DNA from: Escherichia phage phiE142
Direction: 5' to 3' (one strand)
Sequence record: NC_055709.1
Length of the DNA stretch: 64,000 nt
A program made the translations under genes and the position numbers. Every line of letters begins with the position of its first letter. Position 1 is the stretch's first letter. The notes beneath the pieces are model-generated. The model ran no database searches. It was not told where the DNA came from and worked only from the letters and a program-made list of their open reading frames with translations. This document shows positions 3,140 to 30,634 of this stretch, piece after piece.

Positions 3140-3337
3140 TTAGTAAACGTTATAAAAGTTACGATGAGAACGTTTAGCTTTGCGAAGCTGACGTTTAGTA
3201 GGACGAACTGTAAATGGTTGTCCAGAGAAAAAATTCGGATCGGTTTTAATAAGCAAATACCAATCACGCTTGCCATTTTTTAATAAACGGTACAATAATT
3301 TAACTTGCATAATAATCTCTTCCCATTTCCATATCAA
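3140..3337 (-). CDS. hypothetical small basic protein
   Basis: ORF only; Lys/Arg-rich. Confidence 0.3.
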   Translation of the reverse strand: MIWKWEEIIMQVKLLYRLLKNGKRDWYLLIKTDPNFFSGQPFTVRPTKRQLRKAKRSHRNFYNVY

Positions 3338-3438
3338 TTAATTCATTTATTGAAGGTTCATCATAACATGGTTCTTCGTCGTTGTAAACCGTTTCGACGT
3401 CTGGCTCGACAGTCTCCCATCGAGCAGAATACCACGGT

Positions 3439-3795
3439 TTAACCCCGGAGTTTATTGAGCTCTTCATAATCAATCCAGGATTCTAGCCCTGACGGCAGGT
3501 CACATTCAATGTTCCACAGAAGCTCTTCAATGGCTTGCAGGCGATTATATTCTTCAACGGTAATGGTAACCATTGGTGCAACCGGTTCTGCCTTTTTAAC
3601 CATCATGTCATTCATCAGGACATACAAGTCATCACGAACAACAGTATCATTCCATCCCCATGATTTGGCTTCATACGCTAATGATGAAGGGAGCACATTT
3701 AAAACTTCAATAATAGATGGAGATTCAGGACCAAGCTCTGATACACAAACTTCGTATGCATCTTGGAAATCTTTAAGATTTAATGAATATGTCAT
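3439..3795 (-). CDS. hypothetical acidic protein (118 aa)
   Basis: ORF in conserved position between gene 49 and nrdC. Confidence 0.45.
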   Translation of the reverse strand: MTYSLNLKDFQDAYEVCVSELGPESPSIIEVLNVLPSSLAYEAKSWGWNDTVVRDDLYVLMNDMMVKKAEPVAPMVTITVEEYNRLQAIEELLWNIECDLPSGLESWIDYEELNKLRG

Positions 3796-4776: not shown

Positions 4777-5081
4777 TATAATGTTCTCTCAAATTTGTGG
4801 AAGCATTTACGGCATTTCAATTTCAAGTTATCAGTGGTCCAGTTAACCAGTTGGACTTGGATAGTTCCACATTCCGGACATGGATGTTTTGCTGCCGATT
4901 TGGCAGCATTTTCACGTCGTTCAACCATTTTCATGATTTCGTTCCATGCCGGAGGAACGAACTCTTCTTCATCGTGGATATTATCTCGCTGAACAAATTC
5001 AATCTTTGAACTATCATCAATAAACTTAACCAAGCTGTTATTAGTGCTCATATCAATATCCTCTAAAAGACGTAGGTTCAT
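4776..5081 (-). CDS. hypothetical zinc-ribbon protein (101 aa)
   Basis: C-terminal CPECG...CRKCFHKF four-Cys motif. Confidence 0.5.
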   Translation of the reverse strand: MNLRLLEDIDMSTNNSLVKFIDDSSKIEFVQRDNIHDEEEFVPPAWNEIMKMVERRENAAKSAAKHPCPECGTIQVQLVNWTTDNLKLKCRKCFHKFERTL

Positions 5082-6031
5082 TATAACACCTCAATGGCAT
5101 TTCGTAAACCATCCGCTTTCGCATTCAGAGCTTTTAACGATTTAGTTTGTTCTGCAATCTGGGCTTCGACTTCTTTCAGACGAGATTTGAGATATTCGCG
5201 TTCTTCTCTTAAGTTATCAACTTTTTCTGCTTTAGGTTCTTTAATAGGCTTAGGCTTATACTCGTTAGGGTTCTTCAACTTAATTTGAATGCGAGAACTG
5301 TATAACATTGAACCATTATCTTCGGTTTCATCATACATTTCTACCACGTCCATGATTCTTAACATCATGCGAAGTTTATAAGACAGCGAACGAATGGTTT
5401 TGTTGCGCTTATTAATTTCTTCGGCTTTCATAGTACCGAGATTACGTGAGTAATAATAAGGAACCTGGATATCAATTGATAACGACGCGGTGCCATTACC
5501 GGTTGGTTTGAATACTGCAGTAACCCAATCTTTAACATGAACTTTATTTGTACGATCATCACCGCCTGTGAATAATTTACGTGAATGTTTAAAAAGCATA
5601 TTCACTTGGTTATTGAATTCACAAGCAAATTTATCAGCAAATTTAGTTTCAGGAATGGTAGATAACCAATCAGCCAAATGAGTCTTTTTAACATCATTAA
5701 CAATAGTGAATTCAACCAAATCTGTTTTAGATGTCACAGATTTAATAAAGCTCGGTTTCATAAAGTTTTTAATGTTATCGCGAGCTACAGTAGAAGATAA
5801 TAAACGAGAACGTTTAAACCATTGAAGCAGCGTCCCTAATGAATGAGAATACGCATTTTGAGTATCTTTACAGATATGATTTTCTTGGCCTGTGTATGTA
5901 CCAAAATCGCGAAGAATACCACTTACTACATCTCGGTGTGGAACATCAAATCCTAGTGCGCCAACAGCGCGCTGGGCGTGAACGTTAGCGATAAGTCCTG
6001 CAAAGTAATCAATGTAATGTGAACGTGTCAT
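5081..6031 (-). CDS. hypothetical protein with C-terminal coiled coil (316 aa)
   Basis: long ORF; heptad-like C-terminal 50 aa; own early promoter upstream. Confidence 0.55.
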   Translation of the reverse strand: MTRSHYIDYFAGLIANVHAQRAVGALGFDVPHRDVVSGILRDFGTYTGQENHICKDTQNAYSHSLGTLLQWFKRSRLLSSTVARDNIKNFMKPSFIKSVTSKTDLVEFTIVNDVKKTHLADWLSTIPETKFADKFACEFNNQVNMLFKHSRKLFTGGDDRTNKVHVKDWVTAVFKPTGNGTASLSIDIQVPYYYSRNLGTMKAEEINKRNKTIRSLSYKLRMMLRIMDVVEMYDETEDNGSMLYSSRIQIKLKNPNEYKPKPIKEPKAEKVDNLREEREYLKSRLKEVEAQIAEQTKSLKALNAKADGLRNAIEVL

Positions 6032-21132: not shown

Positions 21133-21591
21133 TTATAGGATGGTAGTGAGCACCTTATATAATGATTTGCCCATTACATATTCCCATTGAGAAGGTTTAA
21201 TTAAAGCGAATGCATCAAATTCAGGAATCTGTCGTCCGTCTGGGAATGTATGATAGGAATTACAAACACTGTTTCTGAATTGCTCGTGCTCTACAGGGAT
21301 GGTATATTGGAATAGATGAATATTCTTATTGTCTGAGTAATGATGTTCGCCTAGGTCTTTCAGGAAGGCAGGGTCATATTGTGTAAACCCAGTTTCTTCT
21401 TCGCATTCACGAATAGCGGCTTCAATAGGAGATTCACCTGGCTCGACACGGCCTTTAGGAATATCCCACCGATGAGCTAATGCACCTTTAGGACGAGAAC
21501 CAGTTACACGGCCCATGAATAACTCTTTATCTTTTGTCATGAAGATAATACCGGCTGATAGTTCTTTCACTTTATTTTTCTTACTCATCAT
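21133..21591 (-). CDS. nudE: Nudix hydrolase
   Basis: Nudix box GRVEPGESPIEAAIRECEEETGF. Confidence 0.85.
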   Translation of the reverse strand: MMSKKNKVKELSAGIIFMTKDKELFMGRVTGSRPKGALAHRWDIPKGRVEPGESPIEAAIRECEEETGFTQYDPAFLKDLGEHHYSDNKNIHLFQYTIPVEHEQFRNSVCNSYHTFPDGRQIPEFDAFALIKPSQWEYVMGKSLYKVLTTIL

Positions 21592-23368: not shown

Positions 23369-24325
23369 TTATTTGAAAGGTTTTACCATATGGAAATTTT
23401 GTTTGAAACGTTTGACGTAATCATCATGTCCTAAGCTTTTATACATACTTACTACTTTGCTGTAGTTTTCCCAGGCGTATTCACGAAACCAACCGGAGGT
23501 GATGCTTGTACAGACTTTTTCCAATGCCATCATAAAACTATCACGTGGATGGATTTTAAAGTCATTAGGAATCTGAGAACGTTCTAATGCTAGTACACAT
23601 GATTCTTCGTATACACCGGCCAATTTGACCATTTCTGGTAATGATTCGAACTTCTCGCGTGAGGTCATGACTTCAGAACCATCTTTCATATAAAATGTAT
23701 ACGCTGGACGGTCCGTTAGTGCAATGGCTTCGTGAATAGTATCATGATCGTATGTGTAGATATCATCTTTAAAGAATGCGCTTTTAGAAGTGTCAAGAAC
23801 TGGGTGAGCATAGTTCAAGGTTTCTTTCTGGCGTTTCAGCATAATTTCAGTAAGTTCATCGTTCAGTTTAACACCTTTACCACGAAGATACTGAATATGG
23901 TTCATAGTCTTTAAAAAGAATGGATTATTTTTCTTGAAACGATGAGACATCTTAATTGCAAGACACATCTCAGGAGTTGCCCAGTAAAACCCGTTCAAAC
24001 GGTCTTTAGTCAAATTTTTCTTGGCGTATTTTAAAAGGTCATAAGAAGACGTGAAATCTTCAGGAGTGAGTTCACCGACTAATTCACGGACATTAGTGAT
24101 TGCCGGAACAATATATGCTTCAAAATGAGTTTCGCGTCCATTATGGAAGCATTTGAAAACTTGGACATCAGGGTTATCTTGGTGAACATATACGCCCATC
24201 ATTTGATTTTTGAATGCATTCCAAGAACCTTGGTCCGCAATAAAGTCCCAATCACTGTTTTTGATAGCGCTAGAATCAATAAGGCCGTGATAGTGAAGTG
24301 CACGAGAACCAATAACTAACATCAT
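23369..24325 (-). CDS. hypothetical protein (318 aa)
   Basis: long ORF with early promoter upstream; weak GS...SDWD N-terminal motif. Confidence 0.5.
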   Translation of the reverse strand: MMLVIGSRALHYHGLIDSSAIKNSDWDFIADQGSWNAFKNQMMGVYVHQDNPDVQVFKCFHNGRETHFEAYIVPAITNVRELVGELTPEDFTSSYDLLKYAKKNLTKDRLNGFYWATPEMCLAIKMSHRFKKNNPFFLKTMNHIQYLRGKGVKLNDELTEIMLKRQKETLNYAHPVLDTSKSAFFKDDIYTYDHDTIHEAIALTDRPAYTFYMKDGSEVMTSREKFESLPEMVKLAGVYEESCVLALERSQIPNDFKIHPRDSFMMALEKVCTSITSGWFREYAWENYSKVVSMYKSLGHDDYVKRFKQNFHMVKPFK

Positions 24326-24353: not shown

Positions 24354-24605
24354 TTAAATTTCACGACATGCGATATTATATTCATCCCAGAGGTCGTCAT
24401 GTGAAGCCTCTACCAATGGAACGATTGTACCGTTTATGTCTTCATTATAAGGACAAATTGTACAGTGCGCATCTTCGAATCGTATGCCTTTGTGTTCAGA
24501 TTTTTTATAACGCATATCGAATATCTTTGCAAACTTTTCACGAGTAATAGTTTTAGCAACTACTTCGGTTCCGATACTTTCGTAATAAATCATTGTAGAC
24601 TCCAT
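24354..24605 (-). CDS. hypothetical protein (83 aa)
   Basis: ORF with early promoter at 24611-24651. Confidence 0.4.
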   Translation of the reverse strand: MESTMIYYESIGTEVVAKTITREKFAKIFDMRYKKSEHKGIRFEDAHCTICPYNEDINGTIVPLVEASHDDLWDEYNIACREI

Positions 24606-24655
24606 TTAATTTGATAGGACTACTATAACATAGCCCTATCTTGTTGTAAACTGTT

Positions 24656-24853
24656 TTAGCAAGAATAACTAGACGATACCCAGCCTTGAACAGTAATACT
24701 ATTATTTGATAACGAGATTGCGTCCTGGAGATTAAGACCTGCGTTATCTTCAATCCACAATGTAACTTCTTCACGCTCTTCGGTTGCAATCTGGAACAGG
24801 TTTTCTAGAGCAGCTACTGCGGTACGTACAGCACAATCTAATTCACGAGACAT
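24656..24853 (-). CDS. small paralog A with C-terminal GWVSSSYSC tail (65 aa)
   Basis: shares terminal G-W-V-[SA]-S-S-x-x-C with the next two ORFs. Confidence 0.5.
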   Translation of the reverse strand: MSRELDCAVRTAVAALENLFQIATEEREEVTLWIEDNAGLNLQDAISLSNNSITVQGWVSSSYSC

Positions 24854-24862
24854 ATGGTTTCC

Positions 24863-25135
24863 TTAGCAAGTGTGAGAAGATGCAACCCAACCGCCATCTT
24901 CAAGGCTCAAGTTGTAGTCGTATTGGTAAACATCGGCCCATTCAGCATAACCGTTTTTTGTACAACGTTCAAGATCGGCTTTAAGATGTCCGGGTGAATG
25001 ATAGGTTCCACCCATACCATAAGCTGGATACAAGTCGAATGTTGTGTTTTGTTTATTAGCAATTTCTTTGGCAGCCTCAATAGCTGCATAGATTTTTGCT
25101 ACGGCTTCAGCCAGTTCGGTTTGTTCTTTAGACAT
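24863..25135 (-). CDS. small paralog B with C-terminal GWVASSHTC tail (90 aa)
   Basis: tandem paralog; AAGGAA RBS coupling. Confidence 0.5.
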   Translation of the reverse strand: MSKEQTELAEAVAKIYAAIEAAKEIANKQNTTFDLYPAYGMGGTYHSPGHLKADLERCTKNGYAEWADVYQYDYNLSLEDGGWVASSHTC

Positions 25136-25144
25136 AATGATTCC

Positions 25145-25450
25145 TTAGCACAATGCAGAAGACGAAACCCAAGCACCTTCAGTAATAACATAACCATTAC
25201 CTTCACGCTTAACATCACCACCATTATTTTCAATTTCATCTTTCATCCACTGGGATACAATTTCACCCTTAGGATAATAAGTACGACCGCTACCATAATC
25301 ACCTACAGAAAACGATACGGCGTATTGGTCTGCGATCTTTGTTGCTTCTTCTTCGATACGTTCAGCTTGATTCAGAAGTTTATAAATTGCATCTGAAGCG
25401 GATTTGGCATCATTAAACTCTGGTACTTTAATTTCAATAATCTTACTCAT
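25145..25450 (-). CDS. small paralog C with C-terminal AWVSSSALC tail (101 aa)
   Basis: tandem paralog; shares MSK start and YG(S/M)G(R/G)TY core with paralog B. Confidence 0.5.
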   Translation of the reverse strand: MSKIIEIKVPEFNDAKSASDAIYKLLNQAERIEEEATKIADQYAVSFSVGDYGSGRTYYPKGEIVSQWMKDEIENNGGDVKREGNGYVITEGAWVSSSALC

Positions 25451-25548
25451 TTTCTACATTCCTTAATAAAGTTTTCGATTGTTTCATTTTCACGTCTAGC
25501 TAGGAGTTCATTATAACTAATCATTTGAGAAGCGTAAACAGCATAAAT

Positions 25549-26506: not shown

Positions 26507-26555
26507 GTTAACTCCTTTATTATCCAAAAGGAGGACCGGAGTCCTCCGTATTATT

Positions 26556-29802: not shown

Positions 29803-29853
29803 AAGCCTTGCGGCAGCCTTGTCGGGGTTCCACCTGCTAAGGCAAGTGTTTGT

Positions 29854-29944
29854 ACGAAACGCCGGGATTCGAACCCGGTTATTAAGCAGTTGACGCTACT
29901 CAATATTTTTAAAGGCCATATCTCGACCATATCCGAACGTTCCG
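29854..29944 (-). tRNA. tRNA-like element (about 91 nt, anticodon not resolved)
   Basis: canonical T-arm CCGGGTTCGAATCCCGG and 7-bp acceptor pairing CGGAACG/CGTTTCG; no encoded CCA; remaining arms do not fold cleanly by eye. Confidence 0.4.
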
Positions 29945-30114
29945 TCAAAAACGCTACTCGGCTTACGGCAAAGATATTTCCTCGAATCGATAATTCTGTG
30001 CGCCGTTTCTGCTGTGATGTAAGGGGATATTAACGAATCATAAAGATTTATTAAGACCAGTCCTTACTCAGGGAACATCAGTCCGACGACTTGCCGGTAG
30101 CGACCCGGCTTCTC

Positions 30115-30459
30115 TTATTTTGGCATATCATCAATTTGCTCTCTACGCCGACGCCATAGATTAATCGCTTCATAGGCACATTCTGCGTTTGGTATATGAC
30201 GGCAATAATATAATGATTCACGTTTCTGAAACCGATGTTGCAATGGGATTTCGTTTAAAAGGTCTTTGCGATCAAAGTATTCAAAACTAGTTAACCCGGA
30301 ACGGTTTTTAATGAACTTCCAATGACCGAATTCATTTTGAACATAGATGTAATCGGCATGCTGATAAAGTGAATTAATCAATCGATGAGAAATAACTGTA
30401 TCATATTCATTAAAATAAAACGTTAAATCATGAACTACTAAGTAAACATTACCTTTCAT
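30115..30459 (-). CDS. hypothetical protein embedded in the tRNA cluster
   Basis: ORF between tRNA-Arg and the tRNA-like element; start trimmed to internal Met to avoid overlapping tRNA-Arg. Confidence 0.4.
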   Translation of the reverse strand: MKGNVYLVVHDLTFYFNEYDTVISHRLINSLYQHADYIYVQNEFGHWKFIKNRSGLTSFEYFDRKDLLNEIPLQHRFQKRESLYYCRHIPNAECAYEAINLWRRRREQIDDMPK

Positions 30460-30477
30460 ATTTTCCTCACTTATAAT

Positions 30478-30554
<77 letters not shown>

Positions 30555-30560
30555 AATATA

Positions 30561-30634
30561 TGACCCAGACCAGATTCGAACTGGTAACCTTTCCCTTATG
30601 AGGGGACTGCTGCTAACCGTTGAGCTACAGGGCC
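30561..30634 (-). tRNA. tRNA with CAU anticodon (Ile2 or Met)
   Basis: T-arm ACCAG-TTCGAAT-CTGGT, anticodon loop CUCAUAA; acceptor has one U-U mismatch and the D-arm is irregular. Confidence 0.6.

Follow-up and report, generated by a model that had tools for sequence, protein, structure and literature searches.

MenT/AbiEii nucleotidyltransferases act in bacteria as toxins and as effectors against phages. In the MenAT1 system of Mycobacterium tuberculosis, the gene menA1 precedes menT1 on the same strand, and in the MntA-HepT (MNT-HEPN) and GlnD-PII systems a Pol-beta nucleotidyltransferase nucleotidylates a partner protein at a defined residue. The MenT/AbiEii toxins add nucleotides to tRNA 3′ ends (PMC11375011). 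MenA1, of 7.4 kDa, binds MenT1 by its N-terminal helix alone and induces auto-phosphorylation of the MenT1 active site on Thr39 (PMC11375011). Here we describe three consecutive minus-strand genes of Escherichia phage phiE142 (NC_055709.1; the 64,000-nucleotide stretch that was analyzed is referred to as the window), which encode proteins of 101, 90 and 65 amino acids that end in the same Cys-terminated tail. Genes for proteins with this tail show a near-obligate linkage to the gene of a nucleotidyltransferase structurally related to MenT/AbiEii, which is carried by many large virulent phages. This linkage points to an undescribed two-part phage module.

The association was first seen on a 371-kb jumbo-phage contig, where two tandem members of the small-protein family are located upstream of a DUF7275 protein. 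DUF7275 also occurs in the window, in a 318-aa open reading frame (ORF) about 330 bp downstream of the trio and on the same strand. This gene was absent from the earlier note on the locus, which had been made from the sequence alone. Across phages, the tail genes form arrays of one to six directly upstream of the DUF7277+DUF7275 gene, on the same strand. The arrangement spans Straboviridae, Stephanstirmvirinae, Otagovirus, Menderavirus and Mimasvirus jumbo phages, and is found with differing flanking genes in Aeromonas phage CC2, Xanthomonas phage XbC2 and Phapecoctavirus phiWec181. Justusliebigvirus FKP3, Acinetobacter phage KARL-1 and Pseudomonas phage psageK4, the last with five tail-bearing ORFs upstream of the enzyme gene, are arranged alike.

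The linkage holds in both directions. Among 76 IMG/VR loci retrieved via the enzyme (~15,700 stop-to-stop ORFs), the tail pattern was detected in 194 ORFs, 190 of which lie 0-4 kb upstream of the enzyme gene on the same strand (177 within 2 kb). The pattern is therefore not a chance one. By the strict pattern, one or more tail ORFs are present in 70 of the 76 loci, up to 5-6 in some; of the apparent exceptions, at least one (L040) does encode a tail, which the pattern failed to match. The Fisher p value for tail position (~1e-160) overstates the significance, because the loci are not phylogenetically independent. Conversely, 42 family loci were retrieved via a degenerate DNA pattern for YGMGGTY. 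The enzyme gene is downstream in 32 of them and the other 10 end within 1 kb; that is, all 32 loci with enough flanking DNA encode the enzyme. The survey gave a tail-gene copy number of 0 to 6 between phages, bearing out the suggestion that copy number varies at this locus. No fusion of the tail domain to the enzyme was found among 120 enzyme homologs.

The N-terminal, DUF7277 part of the enzyme carries the Pol-beta nucleotidyltransferase signature G6-S7...D25-x-D27...E69, and these residues are unchanged in all of 38 sequences and near-invariant across 112 distinct ones. The enzyme has an acidic motif II and motif I (hG[GS]-x(9-13)-Dh[DE]h), whose spacing is 17 residues in the protein encoded in the window and 12 in those of the XbC2 type. 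Its overall fold is similar to the solved MenT structures, and its closest structural relatives act on tRNA or small molecules. In the DUF7275 part the invariant residues include K125, H128, H174, H194-D195, H198, E248-R249, K270 and C272. Position C243 is variable (C/Y/M/L/T), and C272 is near-invariant in enzymes with or without tail genes. The catalytic residues are kept in every lineage. An assignment to RlaP was rejected on the lack of a PF10127 match, and PDB sequences gave no match to the enzyme. Because there is no profile match to AbiEii/DUF1814, RlaP or the PDB, we call the enzyme MenT-like by fold and motif only.

The enzyme is represented by 2,214 protein clusters and occurs in 733 phage records of GenBank. 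A survey of 185,579 prokaryotic genomes gave only five contigs of metagenome-assembled genomes; the enzyme is thus essentially confined to phages. The homolog of Klebsiella phage VAC36 (H162, P0205) is labelled “prohead assembly scaffold protein,” a probable GenBank misannotation. In XbC2-like jumbo phages (L004/L008), the module is a few kb from genes for RNA ligase 1, PNKP, DNA ligase and a Gad2-like protein, and in DSS3_VP1 (L014) a 26%-identical enzyme homolog without tail genes lies beside RNA ligase 2. These neighbors may hint at an RNA-repair context of the module.

The trio itself was originally described as three consecutive minus-strand ORFs of 65, 90 and 101 aa that start MS(K/R), end in Cys and have diverged as paralogs. 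Our coordinates and translations agree (Table 1), and the paralogy extends past the tail. Pairwise BLASTP E values are 7e-6, 3e-4 and 7e-4, and in the 64-kb window the hidden Markov model (HMM) of the family matches these three ORFs and nothing else. The 101-aa and 90-aa proteins have in common a helix, a (D/A)YG-G-TY motif and the tail. Whereas the window paralogs are only 25-33% identical to each other, each has orthologs 50-63% identical, in the same order, in several other T4-like lineages examined. As the same-order orthologs are closer than the paralogs, the paralogs are not redundant copies; they are separately conserved lineages. In the otherwise near-identical Mosigviruses LF82-1 and LF82-31 (H84, H85) the 90-aa paralog is present as a variant with 76.7% identity, unlike the 65-aa and 101-aa genes, which are at least 98% identical. 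One paralog may thus have undergone local diversification or exchange.

Table 1. Features of the Cys-tail locus and its surroundings, in window coordinates (pI, isoelectric point)
Feature	Position	Strand	Length	Description
Paralog 1	25145..25450	(-)	101 aa	MSK...TEGAWVSSSALC, ending AWVSSSALC; tail codons 25148-25171; acidic, net charge -6, pI 4.6; DYGSGRTYYP motif present; phrog_899 E 1.3e-22; family HMM E 3.9e-33; orthologs 45-63% identical in other genera
Paralog 2	24863..25135	(-)	90 aa	MSK...EDGGWVASSHTC, ending GWVASSHTC; tail codons 24866-24889; acidic, net charge -6; AYGMGGTYH motif present; phrog_899 E 2.2e-18; family HMM E 3e-21; orthologs 53-55% identical in other genera, there too second in the array
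Paralog 3	24656..24853	(-)	65 aa	MSR...TVQGWVSSSYSC, ending GWVSSSYSC; tail codons 24659-24682; acidic, net charge -7, pI 4.05; without the YG-G-TY hairpin; phrog_4882 E 1.1e-36; family HMM E 3.6e-7; orthologs 55-63% identical
Junction of paralogs 1 and 2	25136..25144	(-)	9 nt	GGAATCATT
Junction of paralogs 2 and 3	24854..24862	(-)	9 nt	GGAAACCAT
Promoter-like site (G)TTTACG-N17-TATAAT	25510..25538	(-)		In the 98-nt gap upstream of the trio; consensus match only
Promoter-like site (G)TTTACA-N17-TATAGT with TG	24622..24650	(-)		In the 50-nt gap after the trio; consensus match only
83-aa ORF	24354..24605	(-)	83 aa	Acidic; phrog_3723; H-C-x-x-C; between the trio and the nucleotidyltransferase
DUF7277+DUF7275 protein	23369..24325	(-)	318 aa	MenT/AbiEii-like Pol-beta-type nucleotidyltransferase
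nudE	21133..21591			NUDIX gene; one flank of the block
tRNA genes	29852..30634			Other flank of the block

In all three ORFs a Cys codon is followed by TAA, and the shared C-terminus GxWV(S/A)SSxxC-stop fits the general form G-x-W-x-[SAP]-S-S-x-x-C-stop. A word-indexed search returned 62 relatives of the trio proteins, and an exhaustive HMM search of 1.84 billion representatives returned 630 at E ≤ 1e-3 and 87 at E ≤ 1e-10. Among the new representatives we inspected 137, and 128 of these have Cys as the very last residue. A few family proteins continue for one or two residues beyond it, so the thiol looks more critical than a free carboxylate. The family is large and specific to phages; by tblastn it occurs in many T4-like genera, Aeromonas phages, Stephanstirmvirinae and a Xanthomonas jumbo phage. 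We collected 421 distinct tail-matching proteins with a pattern that itself demands W and the terminal C; these have a median length of 87 aa and a median net charge of -8, and nearly all (98%) are acidic. For the 8-residue form of the tail (n = 370) the consensus is G-[G/x]-W-[V/I/L/M...]-[S>A>P]-S-S-x-x-C, with S-5 in 369 and S-4 in 357 of the proteins. Some members contain extra internal W-x-S-S-x-C copies.

We considered whether constraints on codons or on the ribosome binding site (RBS) of a following gene account for the tail, which would have refuted the shared motif as first proposed. We compared 198 distinct 3′ ends that encode the tail, drawn from many phages. All six Ser codons occur at the invariant Ser positions, Cys is TGC in 127 and TGT in 71, all three stops (TAA, TGA and TAG) are used and the four bases past the stop are variable. 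This codon diversity at invariant residues indicates that the tail is selected at the protein level. Moreover, the 65-aa gene has the tail though no coupled gene comes after it, and on both counts the RBS/codon explanation fails.

A second, double-motif subfamily of Cys-tail proteins has the form ...DWLSSSC-YGE...DG(S/K)IW-x-x-SSC-end (e.g., L025 4706-4933). It is present in Dhakavirus-like phages, Aeromonas CC2, phiWec181 and FKP3 (L025, L023, L007, L009 and L010) and absent from the 64-kb window. In other phages a member of this subfamily occupies the position of the 83-aa ORF. We asked whether the 83-aa ORF is a degenerate double-motif member; a by-eye alignment was suggestive, the subfamily HMM gave no match and the candidate was rejected. 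The ORF lies within the module and is not a detectable relative of the Cys-tail proteins.

The family had not been recognized in the earlier note, and our searches agree. The trio falls into phrog_899 and phrog_4882, both of “unknown function,” and profile searches of the small proteins against Pfam and NCBIfam gave no real match. Against the PADLOC defense and anti-defense families there was one chance-level match only (E 0.01, 12.5 bits), and a sequence-profile search of the PDB returned nothing for the small proteins; PDB chains showed no likeness to the Cys-tail proteins in sequence or fold. Literature searches on ORF names, PHROG identifiers, motif strings and DUF7275/DUF7277 found nothing relevant. 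The Cys-tail family, its tail and its link to DUF7275 are undescribed in the literature and curated libraries searched.

AlphaFold2 modeled the 101-aa paralog from a 39-sequence alignment with a pLDDT of 90.9. The model has a long helix (residues 15-43) and a small sheet; the tail forms a strand (93-96) and then a short helix (97-100), and the mean pLDDT over residues 91-100 is 89. The suggestion that the conserved Cys end is a signal for processing, modification or docking gains a candidate reader in the downstream MenT-like nucleotidyltransferase and loses the notion of a floppy tag, as the predicted tail is in the fold. One form of processing would be a ribosomally synthesized and post-translationally modified peptide (RiPP)-like site, in which the S-x-x-Cys end is closed by a lanthionine/AviCys-type ring or another radical-SAM crosslink. 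AviCys peptides end in S/C-x-x-C, and the Ser(-4)...Cys(-1) spacing of the tail is similar. We consider such a site very improbable, given that no dehydratase, LanD/HFCD decarboxylase or radical-SAM gene or domain was identified among the conserved neighbors in the window and related loci, that the only conserved partner is the nucleotidyltransferase, and that the proteins are predicted to be folded domains of 65-100 aa and not leader-core peptides.

Escherichia phage phiC120 matches the window region at 99.1% identity, and RB69 and its relatives (Mosigvirus, Straboviridae) match it at ~96-97%. As first described, the block sits between nudE and the tRNA genes. In the RB69 record the trio corresponds to RB69ORF136c, ORF137c and ORF139c+138c, labelled “hypothetical”; ORF134c-139c are without a T4 counterpart, while the flanking e.2-e.6 genes have one. 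In T4, e.2 abuts e.3 with nothing of the trio type between them, and no tail ORFs were found in T4 60-76 kb. The trio therefore has no T4 ortholog at the e-tRNA locus and is not a characterized T4 e.x family, a placement that would have refuted the original proposal. Because it is absent from the e.2-e.3 junction of T4, we regard the trio block as an accessory insertion between nudE and the tRNAs.

Several details of these genomes were noted. The RB69 (L001, AY303349) counterpart of window 25145-25450, at 4845-5151, is split into ORF139c (71 aa, the 100%-identical N-terminal part) and ORF138c (33 aa, with the tail); this split is a frameshift or sequencing error in the reference genome. In RB69 and JK45, gene e.3 separates e.4 from the trio; in T4 it adjoins e.4. 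It is absent from the window and from phiC120, where it is replaced by a 98-nt gap (25451-25548) with the GTTTAC-N17-TATAAT site. In JK45 (L003) the e.4 membrane-protein homolog at 3255-3650 is labelled “sulfurtransferase,” a probable GenBank misannotation. We rejected this label as a hint of Cys chemistry, as it sits on an e.4 homolog outside the module. A perfect GC-rich hairpin (GGAGGACTCCGGTCCTCC, window 26530-26547) between the e.5 and e.6 homologs is terminator-like by score on both strands. Beside tRNA-Arg and tRNA-Met, ARAGORN called a 94-nt “tRNA-Stop” with anticodon TTA (29852-29945, minus strand). The call may be false, or the RNA may be a suppressor-like tRNA or a tRNA-like stable RNA.

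Both junctions within the trio read TGC-TAA-GGAA-N5-ATG. The TGC-TAA-GGAA core is as described in the earlier note; the spacer is five bases, not the four reported there. The TAA stop and GGAA together form a Shine-Dalgarno-like TAAGGA five bases ahead of the ATG, and from this arrangement we infer that the trio is translationally coupled across both junctions. Promoter-like sites lie in the gaps on either side of the trio, and the region as a whole has no excess of such consensus matches.

These sites bear on two explanations that leave the enzyme aside. In the first, the tail is a virion-packaging or structural signal, for example for disulfide formation or capsid targeting, as the packaging idea of the earlier note would have it. 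The invariant Cys is the one feature in its favor. The genes are in an early-type accessory region behind early-promoter-like sites, the small proteins have no likeness to structural proteins in BFVD or the PDB, and the known T4 capsid-targeting signals are N-terminal. We found no support for packaging and consider it very improbable.

In the second, the small proteins function independently of the enzyme, as early host-takeover or anti-defense proteins that are merely co-inherited in an accessory island, for example nucleic-acid mimics or decoys that neutralize host AbiEii/MenT-type or other tRNA-targeting toxins. Small size, strong acidity, early-promoter-like sites and a hypervariable region are typical of phage anti-defense genes, diversified arrays suit an arms race, and AbiE is described among the most abundant defense systems (PMC11375011). 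In addition, a promoter-like site is located between the trio and the downstream genes of the window. However, co-inheritance alone can hardly explain a two-way, near-obligate adjacency across unrelated phages, and no PADLOC or anti-defense family was matched. We thus consider independence distinctly unlikely.

From the linkage we infer that the trio proteins and the enzyme are cognate partners. The proteins would be either antitoxin-like regulators or acceptor substrates, and the tail would be the shared element that engages the enzyme. Between these two, we tentatively favor a role as antitoxin-like regulator or pseudo-substrate of the nucleotidyltransferase, because gene order, protein size and the helix parallel MenA1-MenT1. 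The trio would be made early as a translationally coupled unit, and each paralog would bind the nucleotidyltransferase, as the small upstream antitoxin MenA1 binds MenT1. The tail, with its Trp, Ser-Ser and terminal Cys thiol, may be offered to the active-site or metal region of the enzyme as a pseudo-substrate or acceptor. In this way the paralogs could switch or direct its nucleotidyl- or phospho-transfer activity, of which the target, by analogy of fold, would be tRNA 3′ ends. The diverged bodies of the paralogs could provide different timing or target specificity. A further idea is that the tail thiolate and the invariant His/Cys272 cluster of the enzyme might share a metal site.

Several observations weigh against this antitoxin-like role. 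One enzyme should need only one inhibitor, and arrays of 1-6 conserved, diverged paralogs are explained no less well if these are several substrates or adaptors. The tail is modeled as part of the fold and not as a free peptide. In the window, a promoter-like site and the unrelated 83-aa ORF separate the trio from the enzyme. No Pfam AbiEii/DUF1814 match was found at E ≤ 5 for any of 38 enzyme members. The enzyme occurs without tail genes in four true exceptions (L034, L058, L093 and DSS3_VP1), and in Stenotrophomonas phage Ps15 (L012, 4001-5960) three Cys-tail genes are downstream of the DUF7275 gene, which is the only inverted order seen.

The paralog number also bears on the view that the small proteins are substrates or carriers, whose tail is covalently modified by the nucleotidyltransferase and which become the active agents once modified. 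The chemistry could be the placement of a nucleoside monophosphate or phosphate on Ser-5/Ser-4 or on the Cys thiol, or attachment of a nucleotide-linked group, as likened to MntA-HepT, GlnD-PII and CitX-ACP. Where many substrates share one recognition handle, one expects an unchanging tail on bodies that have diverged and several separately conserved paralogs for each enzyme, as is seen here, and modification explains several paralogs with one handle more naturally than the antitoxin-like model does. The internal W-x-S-S-x-C copies of some members fit a repeated acceptor motif, and the enzyme's catalytic residues are kept in every lineage. Against modification, the predicted tail is part of the folded domain and not exposed, and the closest structural relatives of the enzyme act on tRNA or small molecules and not on proteins. 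Still, MenT-type enzymes can put phosphate on their own active-site Ser or Thr (PMC11375011). On balance, we regard a substrate role as somewhat unlikely.

A more elaborate version combines modification with defense. The enzyme might use the tail Ser/Cys as an acceptor or primer, and the resulting tRNA-acceptor-mimicking conjugates might be deployed as decoys or inhibitors of host tRNA-targeting immune toxins. We consider this improbable. If true, the targets could include AbiEii/MenT, CapRel-type enzymes and anticodon or CCA nucleases, and the conjugates would be a new class of enzymatically matured anti-defense proteins, defined by the W-x-S-S-S-x-x-Cys handle.

With this linkage, a large set of early phage genes so far labelled “hypothetical” becomes part of a defined two-component system. 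The tail motif provides a simple annotation rule for hundreds of phage genomes. Study of the module could reveal how phages manipulate tRNA and translation or counter tRNA-directed immunity, and could uncover a new way to regulate or use Pol-beta-type nucleotidyltransferases.

The module was compared with the closest known systems. All three ORFs are full members of PHROG 899 or 4882 by HMM; these are clustering families that split the family in two and record neither the tail nor the linkage to the enzyme. RlaP (PF10127) is a jumbo-phage Pol-beta nucleotidyltransferase near RNA ligase and PNKP genes, and the tail module is likewise near Rnl1 and PNKP in XbC2-like phages. The passages on RlaP that were consulted make no mention of tail-protein partners, and the window enzyme is set apart by the missing PF10127 match. 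MntA-HepT and GlnD-PII share the genetic pairing of a nucleotidyltransferase with a small protein; the acceptor there is a Tyr in another fold, and the tail motif is unrelated. In AbiE (AbiEi-AbiEii, DUF1814) a nucleotidyltransferase of the same structural class is encoded beside a partner gene. Its partner AbiEi, however, is a ~200-aa winged helix-turn-helix (wHTH) regulator, the phage enzyme does not match the AbiEii profile at the threshold given above, and the phage module is carried by the virus and not by the host.

MenAT1 likewise pairs a MenT-type nucleotidyltransferase with a small protein that has an N-terminal helix, and the phage enzyme has the G-S...D-x-D metal motifs. MenA1 itself showed no sequence or fold similarity to the trio. 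MenT1 has one partner, whereas the phage arrays hold 1-6 diverged ones, and the W-x-S-S-S-x-x-Cys end of the phage proteins is without a counterpart in MenA1. A large additional helical region of the phage enzyme is conserved and includes invariant His, Cys, Glu and Arg residues, and the module resides in virulent phages, not in bacterial chromosomes. In combination, the module resembles nucleotidyltransferase toxin-antitoxin pairs and differs from them in being phage-borne, in its arrays of partners, in the Cys-terminated motif and in the extra domain of the enzyme.

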